UHGV virus genome: UHGV-1692018
DNA length: 19,196 nucleotides
Reading direction: 5' to 3' (one strand)
Origin: a virus
A program made the position numbers and the translations under genes. Below the pieces are notes generated by a model, which did not search any database, was not told the DNA's origin, and saw only the letters and a list, made by a program, of their open reading frames with translations. This document shows, in pieces, positions 1-19,196 of the stretch. Each line of letters begins with the position of its first letter. The stretch's first letter is position 1.

Positions 1-88
1 GGACTTCGGGGGAAAAACGAGTATTTTTAGTCATCCTGTTTACCTCTTTCTCAGGAAGTTTAGTCTCCAGGATTCCCGGGGCGGTTCA
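1..88 (-). mobile_element. Terminal 88 bp of an IS3-family insertion sequence (IS629/IS1203-like), left inverted repeat plus start of orfA; the rest of the element lies outside the window
   Basis: Bases 1-88 are the exact reverse complement of 19109-19196. Read on the minus strand the segment starts TGAACCGCCCCGGGAATCCTGGAGACTAAAC and contains ATGACTAAAAATACTCGTTTTTCCCCCGAAGTCC, translating to MTKNTRFSPEV, which I recognise as the orfA N-terminus of IS629-type elements. Identity ends abruptly at 88/89. Confidence 0.85.
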
Positions 89-248
89 CATCGCCCTTTG
101 CCTCAAGTTTCATCAATAACTCCATTCGATAAGCTATCTCTGCCTGAATTGACCTATGGCATCTTTTTGCTGATTCGCGGATATGTGAATCAACCTTTTC
201 TGTAAAACGAACCTGACGCGGCTTGATGGAAGATATCTTTTCAGTCAT
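60..248 (-). CDS. Arc/Mnt-family ribbon-helix-helix repressor, C-terminus altered by IS insertion (last ~9 residues IS-encoded)
   Basis: 62-aa ORF with AGGAG 7 nt upstream of the ATG. The stretch RQVRFTEKVDSHIRESAKRCHRSIQAEIAYRMELLMK aligns by eye with P22 Arc FNLRWPREVLDLVRKVAEENGRSVNSEIYQRVMESFKK. Codon 54 spans the phage/IS junction at 88/89, so residues 54-62 (VNRPGNPGD) and the stop are IS-encoded. Confidence 0.7.
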   Translation of the reverse strand: MTEKISSIKPRQVRFTEKVDSHIRESAKRCHRSIQAEIAYRMELLMKLEAKGDVNRPGNPGD

Positions 249-297
249 TATGCACTCCTGTTTTTAAAAAACTCATAATCTCACTTTTTGTAGTTTG

Positions 298-326
298 ATT
301 ATTCACTCACACTCAGCATGAGTCAA
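298..326 (-). promoter_or_regulatory. Candidate sigma70 promoter for the Arc-like gene (-35 TTGACT, 17-bp spacer, -10 AATAAT) overlapping ACTCA-type repeats
   Basis: Minus strand reads TTGACT (321-326), a 17-nt spacer, then AATAAT (298-303). The spacer and -35 overlap the imperfect palindrome ACTCAgcaTGAGT (311-323) and the tandem CACTCACACTCA. Confidence 0.4.
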
Positions 327-347
327 TGAATTTTTTATGGTGAACTA

Positions 348-989
348 ATGAATTTTGACGATCAATTCCCATCAAGAGTATCTCTGGCAAGACAGTCCAG
401 GGGTATGACGCAGGCGCAGTTGTCAAAATTAGCTGGTGTTGTTCAACGTCAAATAGCTGCATACGAGGGTGGTGAGGCTAAACCACGGCTTCGGGTATTG
501 CAGGCATTAGCCAACGCATTAGGTACTACAGCTGAGTGGTTAGCTCTAGGTGAAGGTCAGGGTCCGGGAACAAAAAACGTCATGCCTGACGTTCTGGTAA
601 AGCAAATACCAATCCTCAAACTAGATGAAGTTATGCATTACCTAAACACAGGTGAACATTCATCGTCTAGATTTCATCCGGCAATATACAATGTTGGTGA
701 CTCTGCATTTGCATTGACTATTGAAGGTGAAGCTATGACTACAAGTTCAGGTATTAGCTTTCCCAGAGGATCGGTTGTCACGTTCAGCCCTCTAGTAAAA
801 GCTAAAAGCAAAGATTATGTAATAGCATCATTGGATAAAGAGCAAATATTGAGCTTCAAACAGGTTTACATTGGTGAAATAGAGACAAACCTAGTATCCC
901 TAAACCCAATGTATCCTAATATTCTTGTTAGAAATGAAGATGTTAGTATTTTGGCAACCGCAGTTTACCTTGAAATCCCGTTGCTTTGA
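348..989 (+). CDS. Lambda-CI-like repressor: N-terminal XRE-type HTH plus C-terminal S24 (LexA/CI) peptidase-like domain with apparent Ser-to-Ala at the catalytic position
   Basis: 213 aa. N-terminus SRVSLARQSRGMTQAQLSKLAGVVQRQIAAYEGG resembles the 434/lambda repressor HTH. C-terminus DSAFALTIEGEAMTTSSGISFPRG ... SFKQVYIGE ... LNPMYPNI aligns with lambda CI [26 protein letters not shown] ... FKKLIRDSG ... LNPQYP; the GNSM motif appears as GEAM. Confidence 0.8.
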   Translation: MNFDDQFPSRVSLARQSRGMTQAQLSKLAGVVQRQIAAYEGGEAKPRLRVLQALANALGTTAEWLALGEGQGPGTKNVMPDVLVKQIPILKLDEVMHYLNTGEHSSSRFHPAIYNVGDSAFALTIEGEAMTTSSGISFPRGSVVTFSPLVKAKSKDYVIASLDKEQILSFKQVYIGEIETNLVSLNPMYPNILVRNEDVSILATAVYLEIPLL

Positions 990-1049
990 TATCCTTTAGG
1001 AAGCGACACATTATCATCTGGTATCCTGCTCAAAACTAAGGAGGTTGGT

Positions 1050-1238
1050 GTGAAGAAAAAATTTGTAAACGTTGCAAAGTGCGCAATTTTTATATTTTTT
1101 ATGACCTTTTACGGATTTAGTGCCGGAGAAGGTTTCGATCGTGATGCCAATGCATTCAGTTTCTTTTGTCTGTCTATAGTGGTCATAATTGTATGGGTGG
1201 AATTAAAGCAAACATTGTTTCATGTGCTAAGGAAATAA
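1050..1238 (+). CDS. Small hydrophobic protein (62 aa, two predicted hydrophobic segments), function unknown; candidate superinfection-exclusion or membrane-acting protein
   Basis: GTG start preceded by AAGGAGG at about 6 nt. Sequence MKKKFVNVAKCAIFIFFMTFYGFSA...FSFFCLSIVVIIVWV has two hydrophobic stretches. Sits in an AT-rich stretch directly downstream of the CI-like gene on the same strand. Confidence 0.5.
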   Translation: MKKKFVNVAKCAIFIFFMTFYGFSAGEGFDRDANAFSFFCLSIVVIIVWVELKQTLFHVLRK

Positions 1239-1255
1239 CCATCCATGGCATTTAG

Positions 1256-3085
1256 TCACTGCTGTGTTGCCTCAGTGGCAAGCAGCGGTCTGATGGCATT
1301 TGCAGCGTTACTTAATGCTCTTTCATAGGCTGGCGTTCCTGCTTTGGTGTTTGCCAAACGTAAGAGAGCATTCCTTGCTGCTTTTGACTCATACAAGCGC
1401 ATCATTGCACCGAAACCAGCCTCAAGCCCCATTGATACGCCAAGAGTCGCAGTTGCGCCAATCGTCCTTATCCTGTTGGCTTGCGATTGTCCTGTCTGTG
1501 TTACTACATTTGCGGCGTCCGACCTTGCTGTTTGCTGTAGAACTTCATGAAGAGCATCAAGCTCTTTCATGTGTCTCCCACTGAATATCGTGTTATAGAT
1601 CTGACCGTCAGATTGCGACTTCAACTTATTTAACTCGGTAAGAAATTTTGTTGGCGAGTCTCCTGCTTTTTCTGCAATCTTGCTGATATAAGCAGCACGC
1701 ATAGCGTTCTTTCCATCTTCACTAAGAGCTGGCCATATCCTCTTAATATCTGATGGTTTTCTGCTGAATACAACACTGTTTATTAGCTCTGGAGTAAACT
1801 CTTTTTTAGCTTTGTTGAGATTATTCGCAATCCTTTTATTAAGAACCTTATTGAAGACGTTAGAGTAGTCAGAGTTTGCCTTGACGTATCTGGCGGCCTC
1901 TCCAGCCCCCAAATACCGCGCTGCGTTATTCCTCAAATCTGCCCCCATTGCCCTCTCCACGGTATCAGTTGCGGCTTTCGCGCTATTAGGAAAAACCATG
2001 GCATCTCCCTGAATACTTTCCCTCAAGGCTGACCGCAACTCTCTCAATAGACCAAAATCTATATCTGGTTTAGCAAGTTCTTCTCGCAAATCGGATAACC
2101 CGCGAATCAAATCCTTATTTGCCACTTTCCCAAGCCTATTAGCTCTGGTAAGTACGTTGTCGATAACCTTAATAGATTTTGATGTGTCAACTGGTGTGTC
2201 TCCCATTTTGGCTGTAATGTCTTCAATAACGCTTCCGGCCGAATCCTTCCTTGACTTCAGAGAACCATACAGATCGTCAACAACAACTGATGGGCTATAT
2301 TCACCATATTTCTCAAGCTGTTTTTTAACTAGCTGACTTCTTTTTGCATACTGCTCAGCTCGCTTTGAGCCTGTCCCGAGCAAAGCCCCCTCGGCATCCT
2401 GAGTTAGGCCGCGAGTGAAAGCATTTTTCGGCGGGATAACATCAGATGTCATTGGTGTCACGCCCATCGATTCTGAGGTGGCAATTTTTTTCGCTACTTC
2501 TGGCGCGATATCGCCTTTTATAGCCGTTATTCCACGCCCTATTCCCTTTGCTGCTGCGGAAAGAACACCCTGAGCAGCAAGGTTAACTCCGGCGTTTATG
2601 GCTGCATTTTGCGCGAAATCGCCTTTCTGGTTTGCGGCTTCTGCCAGTGATCCAATAGCCATGCTTCCTGCAGTTCCAACTCCTGGAACTAAATACCCGC
2701 CAATTGTTTCTCCAGCTTGCGCATAAGGGTCTGTTGGTCGATCTACTGGACGATAGACATCGTCCAAAACCTTGTGACCACCAAGCCCCTGGCTGATTGC
2801 ATTAATCAGACTTGCGCCACCCTGCAATACGTCAAATGGTATGTTTACCAGACCACGACCAGCCTGTTCTGCAATTTGCCCTGCACTTTGACCACCAGTG
2901 AGCCAATCGCCAGCTTGTTGCATCAATGATGGTTCTTCCTGTGTTGGTGCATTATTGGCCTGATTAACTGTTTGTTGCTGAACAGCCTGACCAGCAAAAT
3001 ACTCATCAATGGCGGTGCCAATATCTTCGGTGCTCGTACCATCAGGAAAGGTAAATGTCTTACCGTTTGCAGTTACTTTCATCAT
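1256..3085 (-). CDS. Ejection (internal virion) protein, P22 gp16-like
   Basis: 609 aa, Ala/Gly/Gln-rich, last gene of the virion operon in the position of P22 gene 16, whose size I recall as 609 aa. Start overlaps the upstream gene's stop. Confidence 0.8.
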
Positions 3086-4461
3086 TCCACCGTAAATTGA
3101 ATGCCTGATTTTGACGTGTAGCTACCTCCTGCTGATTGCTGAGTAGCTGGCTGTTGCCTTGATGATTTCTTCCCGCCATTACCGACATTAACGTTATATT
3201 GCTGGTTGTAATTGTCGGTATATTGCTGAATGTCGCGCATTGATTGTTGTAGTGCTTCAGGGCTTGAGAAATCAACCTGTGGCATACCTTGAAAATACAT
3301 CTTTGCTTCTGCAACGGTGTTGATACCAGATGCCCCCATGTCTCTGGCTGCTGCAATGCCCTGATTCTGCATCTTTCCTTGGATTCGCTGTGCAGCGTTG
3401 TATAGTTTCCTCTGATCACCACCAGAGGCACGGCTACGAATATCTGCACCAAGAGCAGGAGAACCTGAAGAGCCTGTAATGCCAGTCATGAAGCCAAGAT
3501 CGTCAATTGATGCGCCAGAAATTGCATCAAGATCTTTCTTCATTGCGTAATTCTGCGCGCTTGCTGCCGACGTGGCCGGAGCAGCAATAGAGCCAGCAGG
3601 AACGCGAACCATGTTCCCCTCATTGTCTATTCCTTCGTAGAACGCGTTAGCACCTGCACCATGAAGCTTCCCGCCTACGGTTACAGTTCTTCCGTCTGCT
3701 AGTTGAACTGTGCGCTCATTATTACCAACAGCCCCTTTCATTGATGCTCTCTGCATCGCTAAATCCTGACCTCTCCGTGCAGTAGCAGCAGATAAATCCT
3801 GACCGCGCATCGTGATATCCTGACCACGAGCAGTTAACTGATTTCTTTCTCCTTCAAGTCGACGCCCCTCCATTCGATCTTTGATATCGAAGTACTTCTC
3901 ATGACCGAGAGAAAATAGTGCCAGATTACCTGTGAAGTGCTGGAAGCCCTGCGGGTCATTAACCTGCATTTCCGCAATAGTTTCTGGAGGGATACCTAAA
4001 CGACGCATCTCCTTTTCGTTATCCATCATGAACCTGCCAAATGCACCCGGACCAAGCGACGAAGCGACCTGAGCCTTAAGCGCCAGATTGCCAAAATCAT
4101 TCCGCTGGGCGTCATCGACATACCCCATGCCTTTACGAACTTCCTCAAACTCTTCGGGGAATGCTGTAATAAGATTACGCATCTGCTCCCTGTCGCCGGA
4201 CGCATAAGCATCCGCATAACCTTTCTGGAATGCCGCTTTACGTTCCTGCTGTTGCTGCTGCTTATAAATATCAGCAACTCCAGCCAGACCACGTAACGCG
4301 GTCAGACCAACGTTATTTGCACCTGATCGAGCCAGTTCATTGTTTTCGCGAATCAGACCAAGCGTTGCATTAATGTCGCTTGCCTTTGGCGCATTCTCGT
4401 TTTGCGCACCAATTCCAGCCAGAAAACCACCAGAATTAATACCCTGTTGCCACGTAGCCAT
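3082..4461 (-). CDS. Ejection protein, P22 gp20-like
   Basis: 459 aa in the gp20 position (P22 gp20 about 471 aa from memory); low-complexity Gly/Ala/Gln-rich composition typical of podovirus ejection proteins. Confidence 0.75.
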
Positions 4462-4471
4462 TGATTACCCC

Positions 4472-5161
4472 TTAAAACAACGAGCCAAGCAGACCAAGAC
4501 CAGCACCGATACCAGCACCCCACGGAGTTGATAGCTCGAGAGCACTGGCTATGCCACCACCCAAAAGCGCACCGGATGCAGCACCACTAACACCCTGCCG
4601 CAATGCTGACGGTCGGTTGGCGTTTGCCGCTGCAAGAGCCGCGCTTTGCTGTGAAATCTGACTCATGTTGTTGGCATATGTTTGCCCGGCGTTTGCCTGT
4701 CCCTGAAGAGCGCCAAGACCGATATTTGCCAGGTTGTTGTAATTGTTCATTTGTCCAGATAGCCATTGCTGACCAAGCGTTGGTGCGATTGTTGCTAACT
4801 GATTACTGGTTGCGGTGGAACCCAATCCACCTGTTGCTTCCGCTGCAGCCAGACTCTGATAGCGAGCCTGACCAGCAAGATCTTTGTACTGCTGAGAGTT
4901 GTAATACTGGTTAAGTGCCTGACCTTGCCCTTCCAGAGACGATAAGTTCTCAAGGCTGCCGACATACTTCCCAGCCAGAGGAGTAAACGGCTTCAGGTTG
5001 TTCATGATGGTATTGAACTGCTGATTTTGCAGGTCTGCGGCATACTTCTGAGCTTCTGCGGCATACTTTGCACTTTTATCAGAGCCACCTTTCCCGCCTT
5101 TTTCAGGGCAATAAGGTTCCTCGCCGCGCAGTTTTCTGCCCAGCTTAAATGCATATAACAT
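4472..5161 (-). CDS. Ejection protein, P22 gp7-like
   Basis: 229 aa, the size I recall for P22 gp7; begins MLYAFKLGRKLRGEEP; Gln/Asn/Ala-rich; Gly-rich hydrophobic C-terminus. Confidence 0.75.
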   Translation of the reverse strand: MLYAFKLGRKLRGEEPYCPEKGGKGGSDKSAKYAAEAQKYAADLQNQQFNTIMNNLKPFTPLAGKYVGSLENLSSLEGQGQALNQYYNSQQYKDLAGQARYQSLAAAEATGGLGSTATSNQLATIAPTLGQQWLSGQMNNYNNLANIGLGALQGQANAGQTYANNMSQISQQSAALAAANANRPSALRQGVSGAASGALLGGGIASALELSTPWGAGIGAGLGLLGSLF

Positions 5162-5163
5162 GG

Positions 5164-5619
5164 CTATCTCCCGTGATTCAGGAAGTCGATTAGTTCTTCG
5201 CGTGTGGCGCTGTAAAACGTCACGTCATCCACGCCTTTGAAGTATTTCTTGATGGTTCCTACACGCTTAAGGCCAATCATTGCGCAGTACATCTGCCCGT
5301 GGCGGAATTTGCGTGCAGCGAACGATGTGACGCACTGAACGGTGGTGTTAGTCAGAATGTATCGCCAGAACGCCAGCCCGATTTCCTTGCTGAATCCGCG
5401 AACCTCTGGCAGGTACATGGCGTGGCAATCGAATGTAAGCGGCTGAATCTCCTGATAGTAAACAATGCCGCCGAACTGCCCGTGCACGTTCACCTCAAAG
5501 TAACGGCAATCATGTTTATAGTCGTATCCATCACCGTTGTTGCTTCCGGCAATAATGTCAGGGTGATTTCCGACAGCTTCTATCAGGTCGATGTTTCGCG
5601 TTGGTTTGAATGTAATCAT
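5164..5619 (-). CDS. P22 gp14-like virion assembly/ejection accessory protein
   Basis: 151 aa between the needle and gp7-like genes, the position of P22 gene 14; stop/start overlap with the needle gene. Confidence 0.65.
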   Translation of the reverse strand: MITFKPTRNIDLIEAVGNHPDIIAGSNNGDGYDYKHDCRYFEVNVHGQFGGIVYYQEIQPLTFDCHAMYLPEVRGFSKEIGLAFWRYILTNTTVQCVTSFAARKFRHGQMYCAMIGLKRVGTIKKYFKGVDDVTFYSATREELIDFLNHGR

Positions 5620-6320
5620 CAGTCAATCAACCCATGTAATCTAAGTGCTGTTTCAAGCGCCAGAATACGCTGCCGCGCCTGCTCCAAACCTGTAGCGATA
5701 GCTGCGACTTCGGATTGTGTGTACGTAGTGCCGACCGTGTATGACTGGTTAGCGTTGAATGAGCCAAGAAGAGGTGTACCTGTGGCTGCAGTCCATCCGG
5801 TATTTCTTGCTCCAACAACCTGAATTCCATCAACTGAATATGATGTTTTTACATCCAGCGGTGACGCAAGAGACTGCAATTTGGTTACGGTTTTCGATAC
5901 GTAATCACTCTTAATGTCAGATACATCGCTTTCTACGCCATCCAGTCTTTGGTCAACAGTGACCAGATGCGCCTGAATATCGATAACCTCATCCAGCAAG
6001 TAATCAACATCGCTACGCAGTACGACTATCTTCCCTTCGGCGGTTGTTAACCTGACCTCAAGGAGATTTATCGCTTTTGTGTTTGCGGTGATTCTTGCAT
6101 CGTGGTCAGCCAGTTCGACATCCTGTTCATCGTTTTTCACCTGAGCATCGTAAGCGCCCTGACCAGCCTGATTTGCCTTCCCGGCAATTGCGCCGACATC
6201 AGCCCCCTGATTAATGACATACAGCAGGTAAGACTGGCTGAATATATTGCGTGGAAGGATTGATGTATCGAGCCGCGTCGCCTGCACAATAACAGGGGTG
6301 TTGAGATTCGAATCAGCCAT
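5619..6320 (-). CDS. Tail needle protein, P22 gp26-like (trimeric coiled-coil needle)
   Basis: The listed ORF (5619..6422) starts at a GTG; the likely true start is the ATG at 6318-6320 ([25 protein letters not shown]...), giving 233 aa, the P22 gp26 size as I recall it. It overlaps the gp10-like stop in a TAATG arrangement. Sequence closely resembles P22 gp26 as I recall it, including the C-terminal ...[18 protein letters not shown]. Confidence 0.9.
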
Positions 6321-7738
6321 TACTCGATCCTTATCTGAGCGCCAGACAGAGTGACAGGTGACTTCGTGATAACGCGCAATTTGAAGCCGACATTTTTCCT
6401 GATGCGCCCTACTCGCTTCCACAAAACGCGTTTGTCGTAAACGAACGGTTCATTCTGCTCAATCATCTGCTCACGTCCGTAATTGATGCCGTCAGTGGTT
6501 GCAGAGAGGAACAGGCGGTCAGCGTACTGAGCGACACCAGTCGATGATTCAACTTCCAGATCAAAACATCTGGCGTTCTCAGCTTTGAAGATTGGTGTAA
6601 ACAACAGGTGTTCTTGCTGTAGCCCATACTGGCTGCTGATATCGAACTGCAATTTGCCGATAACCGATTCCAGCTTATCTCCGCACGTTATCTGATTGCC
6701 TTCGTAAATGAAGTCGATAGCGCGGTACACATCGTCATACAAGCCTGTTTTCAGCACACACCATTGCGGACCATTGGCGCTTGAAGATGCGTCGTACACG
6801 AGAACATGGCGCGGAAGGTGGATAATCAGCAACTCATGAGCATCAAAGCGCAGAGACTCCATCACGCCATCAGCCAGTTCATCAGCAGTGTAGGAGCGGA
6901 GGATTTTCTCAATGCTCGCGCTGGCGATTGGTGACACCTGACCGGAGCCGATGATGTACACAGACGGCGCACCTGTTGCCGGATTGCTGATGAACGCATA
7001 CGAATCAGCAAACGGCGTTTTGCAGTAGGTTCCGGCGATTCCTTTTTGCACCATCAGCGATGGCTGTGCGACATACAAAGCAGCACCAACTGTGGTTGCA
7101 CCAGTCAGGGAGAAATATTCAATCGTCGATGAGCCAAAGCAGACGATGAAGTCTCGCCATGTTCCGATGCCGATGATGCCGTCCGGCTGAGATTCTGCGC
7201 GATATTGTGCGCTGTAACGGTCAGGATGCGATTCGTCTTCAAGGTCAGTGATAAACCATGAATCAGTGCCGTCTTTTGACCACGCATAACGCCCACGCAA
7301 GCGCGTAATGTCGCGGACTGAGCCTAACTCATACTGCGTGAATCCGCTGTCTGTAGGCCAGTTTGAGACGGTTTTAACCGTGCCATCATAGCGGTATTCG
7401 ACCAGTTGACCATTAACGCCTACCGCCTGTGATGTTCGACCATGCGCCATTGATACGCGACCACTTCCGGCGACGTCACCTACTTCGCTTTCGCCTTTGT
7501 AGAGCTTGCCACCACACACGCGATAAACAGCATTCTGCGCCATGTTGTACTCGACGCCGCGAGATACACCGTTCACATCAGAGCGTTTGGCAATGCCAGG
7601 GAATGAGCGAAGATATCCGCTGCTGTTCAGGATTTCTTTGGGTGTAGCCAACATATTCATTGGCAGATAGTCGATATAGTCGGCGTTTCTAAAGTCTTTG
7701 CCGACACCTTTCATAAGCGGAAGTTGCTGAATCGGCAT
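6320..7738 (-). CDS. Tail hub / head-completion protein, P22 gp10-like
   Basis: 472 aa, the size I recall for P22 gp10; N-terminus [26 protein letters not shown] matches my recollection of P22 gp10 closely. Confidence 0.9.
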
Positions 7739-7747
7739 TTATTCACC

Positions 7748-8209
7748 TCACGTACTCGGATCATCTTTCTCGATGTAAAACCGATTCCACGTAAACGCGC
7801 TTTTTAACCCCGCCCCGCGAGGCATGTCATTTCGTCGCTCAAGTGGTGGTATTTTGGTTAAAGCGATACAGATTGTTTGATATGCACTGTCAGCAGCGGT
7901 AAGGAGAGCGTCTGACGGCTGAATGACGTTATCCATGCACACTTGCACAGCGAGTTTCAAAGCGACGCCATCATTTGCCCATGCAGGGATACCTGAATCA
8001 TCGTCAGGTAACGGCATGATGCCGTTTTCTGTATCAGCAAACTGATATCCAAGCTCGATACCTTTAGCCTGCCATGCTGCCATCATGTCTTCGAGGTCAT
8101 TAATGGCATCTTCAATTGCCTGAGGGTCAGCATCTGTCAACGTGGCATTGGAATACAGCCCGGCTTTTCGTAAAGCCTTTAGAACGAGATCACCCTTCGT
8201 TTTCGCCAT
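7748..8209 (-). CDS. Head-to-tail adaptor protein, P22 gp4-like
   Basis: 153 aa; N-terminus MAKTKGDLVLKALRKAGLYSNATLTDADPQAIEDAINDLEDMMAAW resembles P22 gp4 as recalled; lies between the coat and gp10-like genes. Confidence 0.8.
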   Translation of the reverse strand: MAKTKGDLVLKALRKAGLYSNATLTDADPQAIEDAINDLEDMMAAWQAKGIELGYQFADTENGIMPLPDDDSGIPAWANDGVALKLAVQVCMDNVIQPSDALLTAADSAYQTICIALTKIPPLERRNDMPRGAGLKSAFTWNRFYIEKDDPST

Positions 8210-8378
8210 CTTCTTCCGCCTTAGCCACTTTTTGCTTCGTTGCGGTTTCTTCAGGAGTTTTTACCCAGCCTTTTTTCAGGTGAGATTTAACTTCTTCGTC
8301 ATCAACGATGATGTAATCCAGCGAGTGGGGGCCGCAGGTGATCATCGTTCCCGGCTTATAAAGCATGATTTGAGACAT
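8190..8378 (-). CDS. Small hypothetical protein (62 aa from the ATG at 8378)
   Basis: The listed ORF starts at a TTG at 8390 inside the terminator T-tract. GGAG followed 6 nt later by ATG at 8378 (MSQIMLYKPG...) is the more plausible start. Function unknown. Confidence 0.45.
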   Translation of the reverse strand: MSQIMLYKPGTMITCGPHSLDYIIVDDEEVKSHLKKGWVKTPEETATKQKVAKAEEDGENEG

Positions 8379-8388
8379 TTCGATCTCC

Positions 8389-8414
8389 AAAAAAAAGAGG
8401 GGCCGAAGCCCCTT
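8389..8414 (-). terminator. Intrinsic terminator / stabilising hairpin immediately after the coat gene
   Basis: Minus-strand RNA would read AGGGGC-UUCG-GCCCCU (6-bp GC stem, UUCG tetraloop) followed by eight U, starting just after the coat stop codon. Confidence 0.7.
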
Positions 8415-8417
8415 GGA

Positions 8418-9677: not shown

Positions 9678-9697
9678 AGGTATTTAGCTCCGATGGA

Positions 9698-10594: not shown

Positions 10595-10684
10595 TTGTTA
10601 CCCCTGTTTACTCGATGTTCAGCCCATCGGAAGGCAATAGGGTGCCAGGCCTCATAAAGACAGCCATTGCACGTTATTGGTTAA

Positions 10685-12883
10685 TTACTGCTGTGATTGT
10701 TGCTGGGTTGATTTTTGCAGGATGCTGCTGATGTCCATTCGCTGCGCATGACCCTGTGCCTGACTTTTCAGGACAAGCTCTGCATCAGCACGGGCATTGT
10801 CTCCTTGCTGTTGCTGGAACTGTCCGAGCAGTTTCAGAGCCTCGCGGATATCAGATTTCTGCTGGCTATCGGCAGATGCGAGGATTTTCACAACGTTTGC
10901 CGCTGCAACCTGAGCATCAGTCTGTGCCTGGAATGCTTTAACCTGAATGGCTGCCTGTTCGTTCTGCGCTTTCTGCAATTCAGCCTGACCTGCAAGAAGC
11001 TGACCTTGCGCTGCAACCATAGCCGGATCTGGCTGACTGGCCTGTTGTTGTTTCGCCTGTTCAACCATCTGCTGTTCTTCAGGCGTTCTCGGCTTGATAA
11101 CGCCAGACAGAAGCAACTGATTGCGGTTGTATTCTTTAAGGTCGTCCATCCCTTCGCCGTCCATATTGTCGAGAATCATCGACGATACAAGGTCGTGCTT
11201 CTGCGTTCCTGGTGGGATAAGTGCCAGCATGGAAAGTAACGACTTAACCGTTGCATCACGGCGAGTAGCGAACGACTGACCGACATCGACAGTCACTTCA
11301 TAGTTGCCCTGCGAAAGGTCATTAAGCGCGATAACCTGCCCTGTCTGACGGTCAACCACTTCACCAGTCATCAGCGCCACGTCATCGCTGCCGTCCTCAT
11401 TAACGATACGCATCGGCGTATCACTGCCATAGACCTCACGCGCCATAGAAAGCCACACAACGCCAGCGCGACGCATGGATTTAGCCATGTTGTCCATGTA
11501 GATATAGGACTGCGTGTCCATCCGGTTAAAGATGCTATCAACGGTATCGGTGGCGACGTTGCTCGGCATGTTCTCAAGCTGCGACGCACCTGTAATTTGC
11601 TGAATAGCCGTTCCGGTGTACTGCAATAGCCCGGCAAGAGCAGGAGGCATTTGTGTCGGAGGTGTATAACTGCTGACCTGAGCCTGCGCAGTAATATCTC
11701 CGTTTTTGTTTTTCAGACTGACCATCGGCAGGAACGCCGGGCGCTTTTTGTTGCGCTCCGCCCAATGAGTGGCAAGAGGACCAGGAATCATGTCAACATC
11801 AACTACAGGAATGCCATCACCGCCAGCCTGAGTGGCGTTATCTGCAATCATGGAAACCATCAGGTTCTCAAGACGCTGTGCATCCATCGCTTTTGCTGCG
11901 TGGCCTTCGATTCGCTCCTGATTATCAACAAATGAACGACGCCCATATACCGGGATGAGAGGAATATGTTCGCCCGGAATACGCTTCGGTTCTTCCAGCC
12001 ATTCAGCGCCAGACAGAAGACCGCAATAAACTCGGCGTTTCTTCACCGTTCGCTCGCCAATCAGTTCGAATGCACCATCGGTCAGCTCGTCGACAATATC
12101 TTTGATTTGCTCTTCATCATAGATTGCCGTTTCTCCGCTGACAGGGTTACGCCATGCTGTGAGCTTCACCTTCTCTATGCGGACTTCGTAGTAGCGTCCA
12201 ACATAGATGGCGTCAGGCGTTGACCAGTCATACTGAGTACCAGTGTCATCACGAGAAAGGCTTGCCGCGATGGAATCAGGGTATTCAGCCTCGAACGCTT
12301 TAGGCGTCATGGAGAACATTTCCATAGCCCACATAGCATCAGAGCGGTCATATTGCTTGCTGTCCTGATCGAAGAAGACGCATGTCGCTGGGTCGTAAAC
12401 CGGGAGAAGGCTTATACGGCGTTGCTCGTTACTCGGATCCATTTCATCTTCGTAATCGGCACACATGCGGAAACAACCGAATCCGCCCGTTACAGCATCA
12501 TCAAATGCGTTATCACACGCTTCGCCACCGGATGTTTCCTGATAGTCAGCGCGGAATTTTCCGTTCATCTTTTCGGCTAACGCTTCCGATGCCTTATCGT
12601 CCTTCGGCCTGAATTTAACGCTGATGCGATTCTGTCGATACTCGCCAATGATGCGATCACATTCACGGGAAATCTTATTCAGTTCAAAGCGCGGGTAATG
12701 CTCAAACCTGCCTTCATCAAATGAGTAACCAGCGTTTGTGCTGCCTTCCCACTGTGCGCCGGATACCCGGACGAAACGTTGAGCCTCAATAATCTGCTCA
12801 CGCATATCCTGCGTTGCTGACCAGGCATTATCAAAGTTGCACAGCACCCTGCGATGCCAGTCAGTCATCTTTTTTTCAGCCAT
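10685..12883 (-). CDS. Portal protein, P22 gp1-like
   Basis: 732 aa following the large terminase; the Gln/Ala-rich C-terminal region (AQGQLLAGQAELQKAQNEQ...) resembles the C-terminal helical barrel of P22 portal as recalled. Confidence 0.85.
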   Translation of the reverse strand: MAEKKMTDWHRRVLCNFDNAWSATQDMREQIIEAQRFVRVSGAQWEGSTNAGYSFDEGRFEHYPRFELNKISRECDRIIGEYRQNRISVKFRPKDDKASEALAEKMNGKFRADYQETSGGEACDNAFDDAVTGGFGCFRMCADYEDEMDPSNEQRRISLLPVYDPATCVFFDQDSKQYDRSDAMWAMEMFSMTPKAFEAEYPDSIAASLSRDDTGTQYDWSTPDAIYVGRYYEVRIEKVKLTAWRNPVSGETAIYDEEQIKDIVDELTDGAFELIGERTVKKRRVYCGLLSGAEWLEEPKRIPGEHIPLIPVYGRRSFVDNQERIEGHAAKAMDAQRLENLMVSMIADNATQAGGDGIPVVDVDMIPGPLATHWAERNKKRPAFLPMVSLKNKNGDITAQAQVSSYTPPTQMPPALAGLLQYTGTAIQQITGASQLENMPSNVATDTVDSIFNRMDTQSYIYMDNMAKSMRRAGVVWLSMAREVYGSDTPMRIVNEDGSDDVALMTGEVVDRQTGQVIALNDLSQGNYEVTVDVGQSFATRRDATVKSLLSMLALIPPGTQKHDLVSSMILDNMDGEGMDDLKEYNRNQLLLSGVIKPRTPEEQQMVEQAKQQQASQPDPAMVAAQGQLLAGQAELQKAQNEQAAIQVKAFQAQTDAQVAAANVVKILASADSQQKSDIREALKLLGQFQQQQGDNARADAELVLKSQAQGHAQRMDISSILQKSTQQQSQQ

Positions 12884-12884
12884 A

Positions 12885-14300
12885 TCAACCTACACCACAA
12901 GGAATTGAGTAACTGGAATAGTCGGGTTGCGCAGCCGACTCCGGGCAATGCATACACATCATCAGCGCATCAGCCAGGTTAGGAGATGGAATACCGAGCT
13001 TCTGCTTCATTTCGACCTTAGTCATAAGCTCCAGCTTCCCGTTGTTATTGAATTTGCGCTGAATCTGCGTCAGTTCTGCAAATAGCTTCTCCAGCATCTT
13101 CTCGCCTATCGCTTCTTTGTCGAAACTCAGCATGTCGTCGGGGTCTGCATACTCACCGTGAACAACCGCCCGATATGTCAGATACAGCCTGTCAGCCAGC
13201 GCGTAATAGAATTGCGCTCGCTTATTGCGGAACACATCGCCAATAGTGCGAACGTTGTCACCCTGTACGACTTCATCAGCCCATGCTCCGGCTTGATACG
13301 GTGCATCTTCATCGAATGGCGATTCGCTGCCCTTGAACATCGTGGCGGTGATTTTCTTGCCGGAGAACGCTTCCGTTGTCTGTCTGCGTAGCCCGGCACC
13401 AACACCATCACCATCCCACAGGTAATGGTCAGCGCCGTCTTCAATCGCCAGCGAAGTAGCCCAGTCAGCACCTTCATTGATGTCCATCAGCAGACCTTCG
13501 GCAATGCGCTTAACTACCGAACCGTGGCGCGATGCATAACCTTTAGCATCCGGTCCTGTATCTGACGGGTCATGCGCAGAGACAACAGCGCCTTTCGCCT
13601 TCCATCCGAGTTTCTTGTGCGCATCGGTTGCGGCTTCAAGCCATTCACGTTTGATAATTGCCATATCACTTGCGCTCACTGGCTCACCAAGCCAGATGTG
13701 ACGATACAGTGTCGGATTTCTGCGTTTACACTCTTCCATCTCCAGACGGAGAACTTCAGGAAAGTGCGGGTTGTCGGTGTAGTTCACCGTCAGCAGGCAA
13801 ATATCATCGGGAGGATTTACAACGAATCGCTGATAGGTATCGTCGAGGATGTTCTTAGGGTTGAAACTCACCCATATTTCGGAAAACGGCTTGCGGATGG
13901 TTGGTATCAGGATATCCCATGATTCCTTCGTTACCGCTTCCGCTTCTTCCACCCAGCAGATATCAATGCCTTCGAGCGATTTAATCTTCGTCGGGTTGTT
14001 TTTGATGCCGTAGAACATGAACTCAGCATTCGTTCCGAGATGACGAATCATGGAACGCTGAATTTCAAACTCAGCCGAATATCCTTCACGCTCGATGGTG
14101 TCTTCAAGCAGCCGGATTACCGAATCGCTGATACTGTTTTGCAGTTCACGAGCGCAGAGAATACGCACTGGCTGACGACGCGCCGCTTCAACAAGCAGCC
14201 TCGCAATTGCCCATGATTTACCGCTACCTCGACCGCCTTTGGCGACTTTGTAGCGATGCGCCTCAATGAACGGTTCAAAGATAGGATTAATCGAGGTCAT
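12885..14300 (-). CDS. Terminase large subunit
   Basis: 471 aa; Walker A P-loop at the N-terminus (VAKGGRGSGKSWAIARLL); 4-nt overlap with the small-subunit gene upstream, portal gene immediately downstream. Confidence 0.9.
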   Translation of the reverse strand: MTSINPIFEPFIEAHRYKVAKGGRGSGKSWAIARLLVEAARRQPVRILCARELQNSISDSVIRLLEDTIEREGYSAEFEIQRSMIRHLGTNAEFMFYGIKNNPTKIKSLEGIDICWVEEAEAVTKESWDILIPTIRKPFSEIWVSFNPKNILDDTYQRFVVNPPDDICLLTVNYTDNPHFPEVLRLEMEECKRRNPTLYRHIWLGEPVSASDMAIIKREWLEAATDAHKKLGWKAKGAVVSAHDPSDTGPDAKGYASRHGSVVKRIAEGLLMDINEGADWATSLAIEDGADHYLWDGDGVGAGLRRQTTEAFSGKKITATMFKGSESPFDEDAPYQAGAWADEVVQGDNVRTIGDVFRNKRAQFYYALADRLYLTYRAVVHGEYADPDDMLSFDKEAIGEKMLEKLFAELTQIQRKFNNNGKLELMTKVEMKQKLGIPSPNLADALMMCMHCPESAAQPDYSSYSIPCGVG

Positions 14301-14737
14301 TTTCCGAACAGAGTGCTCATCGGTGATGTTTCAATCTGGATTGCGCCGCCGTCTTTGCCTGTTAGCTCGTGATCAACCTTGTCGCGCCATTTATCCTTCT
14401 GTCGGTTCTTAAGCCAGAAGATGGCAGCTGTTGTATCAGGCGGGTAATACTTCTCAAGAGGAGTTTCGACAATTCTGTTTTCAATAACACGAATATCGAT
14501 GTCTGGAGCCACGAAGCCCATAGCGCGTTGATAAAGACGATCACTAACTTCTGCATCAGCGACTGCCTTACCCTTTTTTATGGACTCTAAAAACTCCGGA
14601 TATTCCAATTTCCAATTGTTGATTGTTGCCTCGCTAACTTCAAAGAAGTCCGCGAGTTCGGCGTCTGTACAGCCCAGCAAGCACAGTTTGCGTGCCTGTT
14701 CGGCATACGCCTCTTGATACTTTGTTGGGCGCGCCAT
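14297..14737 (-). CDS. Terminase small subunit
   Basis: 146 aa immediately upstream of and overlapping the large terminase; N-terminal HTH-like region (ELADFFEVSEATINNWKLEYPEF) typical of small terminases. Confidence 0.75.
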   Translation of the reverse strand: MARPTKYQEAYAEQARKLCLLGCTDAELADFFEVSEATINNWKLEYPEFLESIKKGKAVADAEVSDRLYQRAMGFVAPDIDIRVIENRIVETPLEKYYPPDTTAAIFWLKNRQKDKWRDKVDHELTGKDGGAIQIETSPMSTLFGK

Positions 14738-14739
14738 GT

Positions 14740-14982
14740 TTATGCTCCGGTAGTGAACAGGTCTAACGCTTCCTTCGATTTACGCACCGCTTCGATAGTG
14801 CGGGTCGTGATATCTGAATTAGCGCCGCCTGACTGGAAGTGAATTTTGAATAGCTCAAGCTTCAGCTCGTCAGTGCCAATGAACTGAAATGCTTCCTCTG
14901 CGGCTGCGTTCTGGTTCATGACCAGCTTGTAAATCTCTAACTGGAATTTCTGTTCTTCAGTCATGGGAATAATCTCTGCCAT
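14740..14982 (-). CDS. Hypothetical 80-aa protein translationally coupled to the terminase genes (P22 orf80-like position)
   Basis: GGAG 6 nt upstream of the ATG at 14982; stop abuts the small terminase start; no recognisable motifs. Confidence 0.55.
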   Translation of the reverse strand: MAEIIPMTEEQKFQLEIYKLVMNQNAAAEEAFQFIGTDELKLELFKIHFQSGGANSDITTRTIEAVRKSKEALDLFTTGA

Positions 14983-15003
14983 TGTTGGCTCCGTTTATCC
15001 GTT

Positions 15004-15029
15004 AAAAGGGATATCAGTTAAGTTATCCC
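15004..15029 (-). terminator. Weak terminator-like hairpin upstream of the 80-aa ORF
   Basis: Minus-strand GGGAUA, 10-nt loop, UAUCCC, followed by UUUU; short AU-containing stem, so weak. Confidence 0.3.
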
Positions 15030-15334
15030 GTGTAGGGTATAAGCCATTGTCGAGACCACTCATTGAATGGTCTCTGCAATAACCGATGTCTTTCCATCAG
15101 TCCGCCACCACAAAGAATCTTTTTTGCCATAAGGCAGGAGGTTCATCTTTCAGTGGCTGCCAGTGTTATTTCCCCACTTACTGGCTTGGGTTGCTTCGTG
15201 GTACTGCCGCAACTGGTGGTGCACAGATTTAGTTAAATCTGTTCTCGCCTGAACTATCTTTTACATACCCGGATTGTGGGGATGTAAATCACGGTTTCAT
15301 TATCAAGCCCACCCGTAGATAGGCTTTGTAATGG

Positions 15335-15592
15335 CTACTTCGCTTTTGCTTCCGCTCGCTTACGCCGGCGCTCTTCTTTCCTCTCGGCTTTTGCCATGTC
15401 CATGAATGCCTGCATGATCGAGTTCCGCATCATGTAGCTAACAAAGTGATGATTGACACAGCCGTTGAGGCGCAGCTGCTCGCCAAACTCATCCACCGAG
15501 GCCAATGCTTCCATCATGCCCTTCTCGCCTTTCATGAACTCTGAGAAGTCGCGCCCCGCTCTGGAGGCGCATTCAATAACACGATCACTCAT
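15335..15592 (-). CDS. Hypothetical 85-aa protein with basic C-terminal tail, coupled to the KilA-N/Bro-N gene
   Basis: ATGA start/stop overlap with the upstream gene; C-terminus ERKEERRRKRAEAKAK is highly basic; no recognisable domain. Confidence 0.5.
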   Translation of the reverse strand: MSDRVIECASRAGRDFSEFMKGEKGMMEALASVDEFGEQLRLNGCVNHHFVSYMMRNSIMQAFMDMAKAERKEERRRKRAEAKAK

Positions 15593-16086
15593 CCCGGAAG
15601 CCCGGGGATCGTAATCTGCAGCTGGTTAGCCAGGGAGTTAATCTCAGCGACCAACACTGGCTTCGTATAGCGCCATGCTGCCAGCCCTTGTCCGCAGAAG
15701 CTCGCCATGTCTTTCTTCTGGTCAAACTCATGACATTTCATGTTGAGCTGCGCACTTAAGCTGTTGCGATGCTGAAGTTCTCCGGTGAAGTAGTCATCCA
15801 GGACTTTATAGGCTGCATATTTAAATCCGGGGTTTAGCCATGCTGCATAATCATAAGCAACAAACTTCCCGCCATATGTTCCACCGTGTACACCGCGCTC
15901 AGTAAAAACCACAGATTCGTGGTTTTTCTCCAGCTCGGCTAAGAACTCTTTGGTCTGCTTGTTTCGCAGGTAGTGGTACGGAGATTCAGATTCACTTTTA
16001 CCACTGGCTTTCCACATATCAGTGAGGCAGATCATTCCTGATTCATCAACACGGATCGGTGTATTAAAAAGCGTGATTGCTTTCAT
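15589..16086 (-). CDS. KilA-N/Bro-N-type (antirepressor-like) DNA-binding domain protein; moron-like insertion between lysis and terminase genes
   Basis: The listed 222-aa ORF starts at 16257 inside an upstream terminator; the likely start is the ATG at 16086 (MKAITLFNTPIRVDESGMICLTDMWKASG...), about 165 aa. The N-terminal pattern F..iR....G.....tD..ka.G fits the KilA-N/Bro-N consensus as recalled. Confidence 0.6.
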   Translation of the reverse strand: MKAITLFNTPIRVDESGMICLTDMWKASGKSESESPYHYLRNKQTKEFLAELEKNHESVVFTERGVHGGTYGGKFVAYDYAAWLNPGFKYAAYKVLDDYFTGELQHRNSLSAQLNMKCHEFDQKKDMASFCGQGLAAWRYTKPVLVAEINSLANQLQITIPGLPG

Positions 16087-16230
16087 AGCGTCTTTACCTT
16101 TTAGAAAGTGAGCCTGTCTCACAGAAAAGCCGCCCGAGAGAGGTCGCCACCTATAACGGCATTTCTCAGGCTCGCTTACTGAAAGGCTCTCGTTAATATG
16201 CGCGTGAGATGCGCTGTGAAATTCAGATAT

Positions 16231-16253
16231 AAAAAAGCCCCGCATCGCGAGGC
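16231..16253 (-). terminator. Intrinsic terminator downstream of Rz
   Basis: Minus-strand GCCUCGC-GAU-GCGGGGC (7-bp stem with one G.U pair) followed by UUUUUU, about 30 nt after the Rz stop. Confidence 0.6.
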
Positions 16254-16285
16254 TCATTAAATGGACTTTGTGATTTGCAAAAAAA

Positions 16286-16723
16286 TTATTTCAGGCATTG
16301 CGTCCTGATGTATTCCTGCAGGTAGTTAACCTGCGCGGTTATCTTGTCGATTCCACTTCGGAGACGGTAATAATTGAGTTCAGCATCTGCTGTAAGTCCT
16401 GGGCTTTCTCCATCGCCCATGCCGCTGGCTCCGGTCGTTGACTTTGCACAGGTGGCGGCGACTTGCAGGCGCTTACGCCCAGCAGAAACATCAGCACGGA
16501 GACTTTCGATAGTCGCGTTAGCATCAGCAAGCTCCTTTGTGTATCTGGCGTCGAGTTCTGCTACATCACGTTGACGCTTCTGCATATCAGCGATGATGGA
16601 TGTGGCTTTATCGCGCTGCTCTTTGTAGGTCATGGCGTTATCACGGTAATGATTAACAGCCCATGACAGGCAGACGATGATGCAGATAACCAGAGCGGAG
16701 ATAATCGCGGTTACCCTGCTCAT
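16286..16723 (-). CDS. Rz: Rz-type i-spanin (inner-membrane spanin)
   Basis: The ATG at 16723 overlaps the endolysin stop (ATGA). N-terminal transmembrane segment ([18 protein letters not shown]) followed by a charged, probably coiled-coil periplasmic region. An Rz1-like ORF is embedded in the +1 frame. Confidence 0.8.
16339..16530 (-). CDS. Rz1: Rz1-type o-spanin (outer-membrane lipoprotein) embedded within Rz
   Basis: Lies wholly inside Rz in another frame. Signal peptide with lipobox VSAC (FLLGVSAC) followed by a Pro-rich mature region ([16 protein letters not shown]), the classic Rz1 signature. Confidence 0.8.
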
Positions 16724-17223
16724 TGCTGCCCCCACAAACAGACTTCACGCTCAATATCACGACGGGTCATCAGTCCTTTCCATTGCTTACCGCCAGCGTA
16801 TGTCCAGCGACGTAGTTGATCACATGCACCTTTGATATCGCCCTGGTTGATTTTGCGAAGAAGCGTCGATGTTCTGAAATTGCCAGCGCCCACGTTGTAA
16901 ACGAACGAGTAAAGAGCGCCGCGCGTTGTTTCCGGTATATCGACTTTGATGTACGGGTTAATTTGTCTGGCGACCGTGGCAAGGTCTTTATTCAGGAGGG
17001 CTTTGCATTCTGCTTCGGTATACGTTTTACCGAGCATGATGTCTTTTCCTGTATGCCCGTAACATACAGTCCATACACCAACAATATCTTTGTATGGTAT
17101 GTAGCTGACACCTTCCAGGCCATCGTTACCACTTGGTCCAGTGATTAACACAGATGCTATAGCAATAGCCCCGCCACTTATCGCCGCTATTACGCTATTT
17201 CGTAGTGCCGGTGACATTGCCAT
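16720..17223 (-). CDS. SAR endolysin (signal-anchor-release lysozyme, T4-lysozyme/GH24-like)
   Basis: N-terminal Gly/Ala-rich weakly hydrophobic segment ([20 protein letters not shown]) followed by a catalytic region with the E-8 residues-D-5 residues-T pattern ([17 protein letters not shown]), as in P1 Lyz and phage 21 R. Confidence 0.85.
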
Positions 17224-17398
17224 TCAATCTGTCCTCGCGCTCTTTGCGCTTGTAGTACCAGTTGATGCCAAATGTGCCGACAGTACAAAGAATACCAATG
17301 ATGACAGCCCAGTCATTCAGGGAGAGAATGCCACCCATCGCAGTCAGTCCTCCGAAGCTGTAACTGAACCATTCTCTGATTTTGTCCATACGGTACAT
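17195..17398 (-). CDS. Pinholin-type (class II, S21-like) holin with dual-start motif
   Basis: 67 aa; starts MYRMDKI, compared with phage 21 S MKSMDKI as recalled. Gly-rich first hydrophobic segment ([13 protein letters not shown]), second transmembrane segment ([18 protein letters not shown]), basic C-terminus. Paired with a SAR endolysin. Confidence 0.7.
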
Positions 17399-17525
17399 GC
17401 TCTACCCCTTCATTGAGGGGATTTGCTCTATTTAATTAGGAATAAGGTCGATTACTGATAGAACAAATCCAGGCTACTGTGTTTAGTAATCAGATTTGTT
17501 CGTGACCGATATGCACGGGCAAAAC

Positions 17526-17555
17526 GGCAGGAGGTTGTTAGCGCAACCTCTTGCC
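17526..17555. promoter_or_regulatory. Strong 12-bp-stem hairpin in the leader upstream of the lysis genes; possible attenuator/terminator
   Basis: GGCAGGAGGTTG, 6-nt loop, CAACCTCTTGCC (one G.U pair in RNA). On the minus strand it is followed by GUUUUG. About 130 nt upstream of the holin start. Confidence 0.3.
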
Positions 17556-17804
17556 ACCCGCTTTCACGAAGGTCATGTGTAGAAGGCCGCAGCGTAACTA
17601 TCACTGATGAATTCAGGATAGCCAGTGGCTACGGCTCAGTTTGGGTTGTGCTGTTGCTGGGCGGCGATGACGCCTGTACGCATTTGGTGATCCGGTTCTG
17701 CTTCCGGTATTCGCTTAATTCAGCACAACGGAAAGAGCACTGGCTAACCAGGCGCGCCGACTCTTCACGATTATCGACTCAATGCTCTTACCTGTTGTGC
17801 AAAT

Positions 17805-17847
17805 AAAAAAAGCCACCGTTGCAACTTAAGAGTCACTAACGGCAGCT
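17805..17847 (-). terminator. Terminator-like hairpin plus U7 tract just downstream of the HNH endonuclease gene
   Basis: Minus-strand AGCUGCCGUU ... AACGGUGGCU (about 10 bp with two G.U pairs, large loop) followed by UUUUUUU; starts about 10 nt after the HNH stop. Confidence 0.45.
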
Positions 17848-17854
17848 TACATCT

Positions 17855-18367
17855 TTAAACGGTATGATATTTCATTCTGGCTGCCTCAAAAGCCGCAGCG
17901 GCAAGTTCGGCAGTGTCATGGTATCCAAGGTTAATACACTTTCCAGACGCATTAATTCTTGCTCTCCATTTCCCGTACTTAGCATCCCAAGACACGCCAC
18001 GGTATCCAGATTTATTATTCTTCTGAATTTTCCTGTTTTGCATATTTTCGGAATGAGTGACAAGACGAAGATTTGATATCCGGTTATCTGTTCTTACCCT
18101 GTTGATGTGATCAATAAAACCATCGGGCATGGTGCCATAAACAATCAACCATGCCAGTCTGTGAGCAGGGCATGCTTTACCATTAATCATAATCATTAAA
18201 TACCCATCAGAATTTATTGATGAGCATTTCTTGAAAGCAAAACGAGAGTTCCATGTCAAAGTGGTCCTCTCTCTCCCCTGCCTCCATCTCCAGTGAAAGT
18301 CGCCTGATGATGGATTGTAATCAACAACAGAAAGCACCATTTCTGGCGTTAATTTTATTTCTTTCAT
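17855..18367 (-). CDS. Free-standing HNH homing endonuclease with C-terminal AP2-type DNA-binding domain
   Basis: 170 aa. HNH motif region AHRLAWLIVYGTMPDGFIDHINRVRTDNRISNLRLVTHSEN; C-terminal AP2-like region GYRGVSWDAKYGKWRARI...GYHDTAELAAAAFEAARMKY. Confidence 0.85.
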   Translation of the reverse strand: MKEIKLTPEMVLSVVDYNPSSGDFHWRWRQGRERTTLTWNSRFAFKKCSSINSDGYLMIMINGKACPAHRLAWLIVYGTMPDGFIDHINRVRTDNRISNLRLVTHSENMQNRKIQKNNKSGYRGVSWDAKYGKWRARINASGKCINLGYHDTAELAAAAFEAARMKYHTV

Positions 18368-18489
18368 CGCTTTACCTTAGGGATAGAGCCTGTTCGCGTA
18401 GATATGACAGCCAAGAGCGGAGCGATGTTTCCACCACCATATCTCAGGCCCATATCACTAAGACTCTTGTTTTGATTGCACGCGAATGC

Positions 18490-18512
18490 AAAAAAGCCCA
18501 CAGGAGGTGGGC
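18490..18512 (-). terminator. Intrinsic terminator about 50 bp downstream of the Q-like gene (tR'-like)
   Basis: Minus-strand GCCCAC-CUCCU-GUGGGC (perfect 6-bp GC stem, 5-nt loop) followed by UUUUUU. Confidence 0.7.
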
Positions 18513-18554
18513 TTGTGATGGTTGCTGAATGCAAAAGCAGCAGCATATGTGAAT

Positions 18555-18584
18555 ATTATGGCTAAATGGCTAATTGCATGTCAA
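18555..18584 (-). promoter_or_regulatory. Candidate late promoter (pR'-like) overlapping the 3' end of the Q-like gene
   Basis: Minus strand has TTGACA (18579-18584), an 18-nt spacer containing the Q stop codon, then CATAAT (18555-18560). Predicted start is about 18548, giving a roughly 55-nt RNA ending at the 18490-18512 terminator. A -10-like element (TATGCT) lies in the initial transcribed region. Confidence 0.45.
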
Positions 18585-19080
18585 GACTTTTAACAGCAAC
18601 ATGCTTAACTTTCTCAACACGTTTACGCATTTTGAAAGCATTTTGCATTGGTTGGTACAAAACAAATAACGACGCTTTCAGGATGTCGTCAATTTCGTTT
18701 CTACAGGTTGCCATTGAAGGTTTTCTCCATCCCTCGCCACCACGTCCACACATCTTGCGTGGCTTTGCAGTCGCGTGATAGTAGGATGCAATTGCTCGCT
18801 TAGATGAACCATGAGCGTAGTAGCTGAGGAGGATGCCAAAGGCTTTTTTGTCAATGTACATGACGGAATCGACGACCTGAGAAATCAACATTCCATCATC
18901 ATCATTGCACATTGGCCTTGTCATAACTCTTCCCGGCTCTACGCTCTCCATGAACTTCGCTATTACGCTGCTCATGCGCTTTTCCAGACGACCTGAATAA
19001 ACCCATGCGCCCCACAGTTCAAGCCAGCCATTCAGCCACTCATGCTGTTCTTTGGTGAGGTTTAGTTCTCTTATGCCCAC
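18562..19080 (-). CDS. Q-like late-gene antitermination protein (QuuD/phage-82-type family, tentative)
   Basis: 172 aa, GTG start with GGAG upstream. Motifs WLELWGAW and RPMCNDDDGMLI resemble E. coli prophage Q-type antiterminators (QuuD: ERWGAW ... RPQICDDDAMII, recalled from memory). Located immediately upstream of the late promoter/terminator and the lysis cassette. Confidence 0.6.
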   Translation of the reverse strand: MGIRELNLTKEQHEWLNGWLELWGAWVYSGRLEKRMSSVIAKFMESVEPGRVMTRPMCNDDDGMLISQVVDSVMYIDKKAFGILLSYYAHGSSKRAIASYYHATAKPRKMCGRGGEGWRKPSMATCRNEIDDILKASLFVLYQPMQNAFKMRKRVEKVKHVAVKSLDMQLAI

Positions 19081-19108
19081 GCGCCTTCTCCCTGTACCTG
19101 AATCAATG

Positions 19109-19196
19109 TGAACCGCCCCGGGAATCCTGGAGACTAAACTTCCTGAGAAAGAGGTAAACAGGATGACTAAAAATACTCGTTTTTCCCCCGAAGTCC
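19109..19196 (+). mobile_element. Terminal 88 bp of an IS3-family insertion sequence (IS629/IS1203-like), left inverted repeat plus start of orfA; the rest of the element lies outside the window
   Basis: Starts TGAACCGCCCCGGGAATCCTGGAGACTAAACTTCCTGAGAAAGAGGTAAACAGG, then ATGACTAAAAATACTCGTTTTTCCCCCGAAGTCC (MTKNTRFSPEV); exact inverted copy of bases 1-88. Confidence 0.85.

Follow-up and report, generated by a model that had tools for sequence, protein, structure and literature searches.

IS629, with its isoforms IS1203 and IS3411, is an insertion sequence (IS) of the IS51 group of the IS3 family in the ISfinder classification, with known insertions in lambdoid prophages of enterohaemorrhagic Escherichia coli and of Shigella; IS3-family elements move by a copy-out/paste-in mechanism, and their transposition joins the left inverted repeat (IRL) with the right one (IRR). 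In Escherichia coli O157:H7, 62% of the IS629 copies reside on prophages, at sites that are highly variable between strains; the element has no sequence-specific target, produces duplications of 3–4 bp, and has repeatedly struck a single gene at differing sites (PMC3271280). The P22-like prophages (Lederbergvirus-type; the group of CUS-3, phiv205-1, Sf101, and HK620) harbor a late region with the order Q, lysis genes, terminase, portal, scaffold, coat, gp4, gp10, gp26, gp14, gp7, gp20, and gp16, together with P22-specific Pfam families. Both systems are represented in the virus genome UHGV-1692018, a stretch of DNA of 19,196 nucleotides (hereinafter, the window, i.e., the whole stretch that was analysed), in which two IS629 copies in opposite orientation have their left ends against a segment of 19,020 bp (positions 89–19108), which represents the late half of a P22-like prophage from E. 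coli.

According to the data reported below, this arrangement is best explained, with a probability of about 0.75, by two independent IS629 insertions, opposite in orientation, into the P22-like prophage of an E. coli strain rich in IS629. Two separate full-length copies of 1,310 bp would have inserted independently, one of them into the 3' end of a nin-region Ser/Thr phosphatase gene, 28 nt upstream of Q, and the other at the start of a Bro-N/P22_AR_C antirepressor-like gene, just beyond the genes for the ejection proteins. Each copy would be a simple insertion, its far end carrying the 3-bp duplication ATG, the remaining prophage would continue beyond the two copies, and the window would be what a short-read assembler returns as a whole contig when unique DNA is enclosed by copies of a multi-copy repeat.

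The two ends of the window (positions 1–91 and 19106–19196) are perfect reverse complements of each other over 91 nt, a match far above chance; the preliminary description of this DNA had recognised the repeat but assigned it 88 bp. Of the 91 nt, 88 belong to the IS629 left end and 3 to the flank. The IS termini (5'-TGAACCGCCCCGGG…) fall at position 88 on the minus strand and at position 19109 on the plus strand, and the left-end sequence TGAACCGCCCCGGGAATCC… reads from 88 to 1 and from 19109 to 19196. Both IS ends begin with the 5'-TG of the inverted repeat and are nearly identical to the IS629 left end, with 87 of the 88 nt matching a complete 1,310-bp copy in a related contig (L024), which is bounded by the 3-bp duplication tac…tac; a second reference copy, in L017, is flanked by att…att. 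The terminal 88 nt also embed the first 11 codons of orfA (MTKNTRFSPEV), the rest of the gene lying beyond the window; in the left copy (1–88, minus strand), which is the reverse complement of 19109–19196 and exits the window leftward, the orfA ATG is at 34–32, and in the right copy (19109–19196, plus strand), which exits rightward, orfA starts at 19163. The name assigned by the Prokaryotic Genome Annotation Pipeline (PGAP) is "IS3-like element IS1203 family transposase", and IS1203 is an isoform of IS629 (PMC3271280). These data establish the identity of the element, in agreement with the earlier assignment to an IS629-type left terminus, and the outward course of the two copies is likewise as first proposed.

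Of each copy, the window includes no more than the first 88 nt; one public contig (L003) carries the left junction out to 139 nt of IS629 sequence, and full copies of 1,310 bp, which are separate IS copies in L024 and L039, encode OrfA (helix-turn-helix) and OrfB (DDE, rve) via a -1 frameshift. The neat repeat at the ends of the window is thus all that can be seen there of two full IS copies. In IS orientation, the flanks of the two copies are identical (ATG|TGAACC): the triplet cat at 89–91 (ATG on the minus strand) and the triplet ATG at 19106–19108 (plus strand) are the probable target triplets of the left and the right copy, respectively. The right triplet had been misread as caa; the mismatch between the flanks that was based on it, and with it the argument drawn from that mismatch for independent insertion or inversion, does not hold.

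The comparison with IS-free relatives that the preliminary description had called for revealed that the segment is collinear with uninterrupted prophages up to both junctions, with no internal rearrangement, and that both empty sites are common in complete genomes at 99–100% identity. None of the 5,426 complete E. coli genomes that were searched has either junction or an IS629 copy at either of these two points.

The empty right site reads …cctgaatca ATG tgagatttcc…, and the right IS lies in the nin-region Ser/Thr phosphatase gene, at codon 213 of 223 and 28 nt upstream of the Q start. The last 12 codons of that gene (…TLIQVQGEGAWA*; 19071–19108, minus strand, frame 0 translation) are left joined to Q and severed from the gene body by the IS; in intact relatives, the sequence continues past this site with the phosphatase gene, ninH, ninG, and the early region. 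A known IS629 copy affects the same gene next to Q: in a Stx2c prophage of strain 7784, whose genome is complete, the homologous phosphatase gene is interrupted by IS1203/IS629, with a clean aag duplication and both gene halves kept, i.e., as a simple insertion.

The phosphatase gene beside Q has been struck by IS629-family elements at least three separate times and at different positions, that is, in the window (flank ATG), in L036 (1–130; 76 nt off, in the opposite orientation, flank cat), and in strain 7784 (L039, 3090–4440; aag). In several further genomes of Shiga toxin-producing E. coli (H56–H60), an IS3-family transposase lies about 1 kb or less from this Q gene.

The empty left site, in IS orientation, is …ggcg ATG ttgtcatcc…, and the flanking ATG is the start codon of the 238-aa Bro-N/P22_AR_C gene as called in L011 (12995–13711), whereas the PGAP call in L001 places the start of this gene 87 nt farther downstream. 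Past this site, intact relatives carry Bro-N, a ClpP-like gene, mnt/arc, ant, and the tailspike gene. The left IS also replaces the last codons of a 57-aa phage open reading frame (ORF) with IS codons, which results in a 62-aa fusion ORF (60–248, minus strand) that represents a junction-specific marker; its exact sequence was retrieved from 24 public contigs (NCBI, IMG, ENA, Logan), the longest of which is 22,798 nt. The left junction was found base for base in the eight other public contigs that were read, each of which stops 26–139 nt into the IS.

Next to the left copy, a gene for an HTH_3/Peptidase_S24 (CI/LexA-like) regulator of 213 aa (348–989, plus strand; Pfam matches on an identical protein and PGAP names) is divergent from the 57-aa ORF, which in turn overlaps the start of the Bro-N/P22_AR_C antirepressor-like gene (window positions 60–989). 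This region resembles a self-cleaving-repressor/antirepressor module and occupies the position of P22 sieA and immI; the left IS cuts this putative module precisely at the antirepressor start.

Sister prophages harbor IS629 at other positions. L036, which is 99.86% identical to the window over 16.9 kb, has the right site uninterrupted; it opens on the right end of an oppositely oriented IS629, whose junction with the phosphatase gene (…GGTTCA|catacgcc) lies 76 nt deeper in that gene, and it terminates in an IS629 left end within gp16. L033 terminates in IS629 near the gp16/gp20 boundary and L034 upstream of ninH. A fourth contig, L032 (ERZ825627 NODE_1528, 22,798 nt), shares with the window the left junction and the same late genes at 99.6% identity; from window position 17177 onward, inside the lysozyme gene, it belongs to a different lambdoid backbone, and its other end is a different IS629 right end (…GGTTCA|att). 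This join stems either from real recombination, which would make the contig a mosaic, or from a metagenome chimera. The backbone of L032 (1–5635) harbors a 127-aa Q, a porin gene between Q and the holin gene, DUF968, and RusA. Independent insertions fit best because the gene order is collinear, the empty sites are common, the right site is empty in L036, and IS629 occupies other positions in the sister prophages. Such scatter is in line with what has been published for O157:H7 (PMC3271280).

Some points weigh against two independent insertions. The first is the shared ATG flank, which is best treated as a 1-in-64 coincidence, since the flank triplets seen in this analysis vary (atg, atg, att, tac, tat, tac, cat, gaa, and aag). 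A preference of IS629 for ATG targets was considered and rejected in view of these varied flanks and of the absence of target specificity (PMC3271280). Replicative or IS-dimer intramolecular transposition was also discarded as a source of the two ATG triplets, since the duplication would adjoin one IRL and one IRR, rather than two IRLs, and since copy-out/paste-in is the route taken by IS3-family elements. The second point is that the far ends of both copies were never recovered. For simple insertions, the far junctions are predicted to be IRR-ATG-TTGTCATCC… and IRR-ATG-TGAGATTTCC…, or, in longer form, GGGGCGGTTCA-ATG-TTGTCATCCAAT and GGGGCGGTTCA-ATG-TGAGATTTCCGC. Degenerate-pattern scans of IMG/VR, the GTDB representatives, and the JGI metagenomes with all four junctions retrieved only three unrelated IS ends; the absence of the predicted far junctions from these collections counts weakly, the two proximal junctions being absent from them too. 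Equally weak are two negatives from the search for fusions: the predicted 265-aa phosphatase::IRR fusion is not among 907 IS629 read-through fusions, none of which has a phosphatase part, and an exact look-up of ten predicted contig-end partial fusions (seven phosphatase alleles, k=31) found none on record. Their weight is limited because the stop codon of the fusion lies 159 nt inside the IS, past the reach of short-read contigs, and because the phosphatase allele of this lineage is not known. Lastly, only 21 of 47 IS629 copies in O157:H7 retain matching duplications (PMC3271280), which implies that later rearrangement is common.

The top match among the 907 fusions (P0001; NCBI EAI62_26230, 82 aa) carries the IS-derived tail twice in tandem, which implies a partial tandem duplication of the IS629 right end in its E. 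coli contig.

The alternative that survives best, although we consider it unlikely, is that the two insertions were followed by an IS-mediated rearrangement, i.e., either a RecA-dependent flip of the 19-kb late block or the deletion of the original outer flank by one of the copies. Inverted 1.3-kb repeats placed 19 kb apart are good substrates for recombination, over half of the IS629 copies of O157:H7 are devoid of matching duplications (PMC3271280), and the predicted far junctions did not appear in the collections scanned. However, nothing speaks positively for such an event, the negative searches are of low power, and the geometry that the preliminary description had read as the product of an inversion is common to every inverted IS pair, which presents like ends inward. 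In an inversion, each IS end retains its own flank, so that the inward-facing ends and the sequences of all four junctions stay as before, and the window bears no trace either way. An inversion is therefore revealed solely by linkage across the 1.3-kb copies; the presumed duplications being both ATG, the far junctions do not discriminate.

A composite transposon, in which IS629, the late region, and IS629 would move as a block, is very improbable. It had been listed in the preliminary description beside inversion and independent insertions, the last of which fits best, and its sole point is that a discrete module is enclosed by a pair of copies of one IS; nothing else supports it. On the other side, each inner junction has the interrupted gene in its native neighbourhood, exactly where the adjacent phage genes carry on in intact relatives, which implies that the unit was formed in place. 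Moreover, both outer ends of such a unit would be IRR, while IS3-family transposition joins unlike ends, and the bracketed unit was not seen in another context. The empty right site of L036, and the occurrence in L032 of the left junction on another backbone with another IS629 end, also show that the bracketed unit is not invariant among close relatives.

An assembly artefact (a single IS copy, a hairpin chimera, or the merging of two strains with one insertion each) is the least credible explanation, since, although the window is evidently a raw contig with ends set by the k-mer length (88 + 3 = 91), a single element, including one in a permuted or circular contig as had been suggested, is excluded because it would present its left and right ends in direct orientation, the same two-ended contig was obtained from an independent sample with another assembler setting (L035), and, in a two-strain mixture, an empty-site allele at similar coverage would be expected to branch the graph at the insertion site and not k-3 nt into the IS.

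That contig, L035 (MEGAHIT k141, ERZ27263676), matches the window at 99.97% identity. Past the right junction it extends over 138 nt of IS, and its 19,296 nt equal exactly 19,020 + 2 × 138. The structure of the window, including the placement of the segment between two inverted IS copies, is thus reproduced. In terms of end arithmetic, ATG plus 138 nt gives 141 in L035, and ATG plus 88 nt gives 91 in the window, which implies that each contig stops at the k-mer where its two ends become identical in sequence; since both flanks read ATG, the shared k-mer point in the window corresponds to ATG plus 88 nt of IS, i.e., 91 nt. The window is a complete short-read contig from a de Bruijn graph with k of about 91. 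Repeat-terminated de Bruijn contigs stop in the IS at a k-dependent distance, which is 88 nt in the window, 138 nt at k141, 54 nt in k55 scaffolds, and 26–28 nt in k31 Logan contigs. The window differs from the usual contigs of this type in the additional identity of the 3-nt flank, by which both ends share one terminal k-mer and form the 91-nt inverted repeat. In L003, L004, L006, and presumably L038, the IS lengths are k-2 or k-1, compared with k-3 in the window and in L035; the value k-2 applies to the MEGAHIT contig L003 and presumably to L038, and k-1 to two metaSPAdes scaffolds. These classes hint, subject to assembler conventions, that many samples have the left junction but lack the right, in which case the left insertion may be older.

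The segment between the two copies lies nearly entirely on the minus strand, and gene lengths throughout equal those of intact relatives. From 19080 down to 1256, the order is Q, HNH/AP2, holin, lysozyme, Rz, KilA-N, small and large terminase, portal, scaffold, coat, gp4, gp10, gp26, gp14, gp7, gp20, and gp16; portal, coat, scaffold, gp4/gp10/gp26, and gp7/gp20/gp16 are thus all present in the canonical order of a P22-like late region. The antiterminator Q family gene (172 aa; 18562–19080, minus strand) starts 28 nt from the right IS end and is followed by an HNH_3/AP2 endonuclease-like gene of 170 aa (17855–18367, minus strand; PF13392 and PF00847 on the exact protein) located between Q and the holin gene. 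The genes for the holin, the lysozyme, an Rz-like spanin, a KilA-N/ORF11CD3 protein, an 85-aa ORF, and a DUF2560 protein occupy 14740–17398 (minus strand). The virion module (1256–14737, minus strand) comprises small and large terminase, portal, scaffold, coat, gp4, gp10, the gp26 needle, gp14, gp7, gp20, and gp16 (1256–3085, minus strand), all of them full length according to the ORFs and to the Pfam matches of the 99.97%-identical L035 and of relatives. The supporting families, recorded on identical or 99.97%-identical proteins, are PF16510, PF11651, PF09306, PF11650, PF11134, PF25688, PF16928, and PF26808.

The P22-like prophages of the above-mentioned group share 92–95% nucleotide identity with the segment over 48–64% of its length. 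The nearest isolated phages, phiv205-1 and CUS-3, are about 94% identical over about 60% of it, and, among complete E. coli genomes, the best match extends over 83% with 95.5% identity. The window differs from that group in having a large terminase of the Terminase_3 type and a 146-aa small subunit with no recorded Pfam match, as well as the HNH/AP2 gene after Q, and the S24 repressor-like gene and the Bro-N antirepressor after gp16; compared with a full P22-like prophage, the early region, ant, and the tailspike gene fall outside the window.

A tRNA scan of the window found no tRNA genes; some relatives (L002) harbor tRNA-Thr/Asn genes in the Q-to-holin interval, where the window has the HNH_3/AP2 gene. 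A similar HNH/AP2 gene of 203 aa is present as a second copy in the early region of the relatives L019 and L022–L025, and a NUMOD4/HNH_3 homing-endonuclease-like gene lies between gp10 and gp26 in L029 (16586–17131), a relative that is 99.6% identical; the window is devoid of that gene.

As for the consequences for the phage, the prophage is probably defective. The right copy would separate Q from the read-through transcription of the early/nin region, the left copy would separate the late block from the side of the immunity region and the tailspike gene, and together the two copies would add 2.6 kb to a genome that is packaged by the headful. The insertions are probably crippling, as usually happens to prophages in strains rich in IS629. 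A bolder reading, which we regard as a long shot, is that the inverted IS629 pair makes the complete Q, lysis, packaging, head, and ejection module a discrete 21.6-kb cassette, which IS-dependent recombination could invert in place or transfer from one lambdoid prophage to another, with L032 as a possible trace; if true, it would represent an IS-driven route to phage mosaicism.

The feature described here is real but ordinary, with little import beyond bookkeeping. It adds two IS629 sites without a counterpart in complete E. coli genomes, one in the nin phosphatase gene and one at a Bro-N antirepressor gene. It also shows that a contig may end in a clean inverted repeat simply because an IS present in several copies lies at both ends, the length of the repeat being set by the k-mer of the assembler. 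The recurrent strikes of IS629 in the phosphatase gene beside Q may be of interest for the typing, by IS629 position, of lineages resembling enterohaemorrhagic E. coli.

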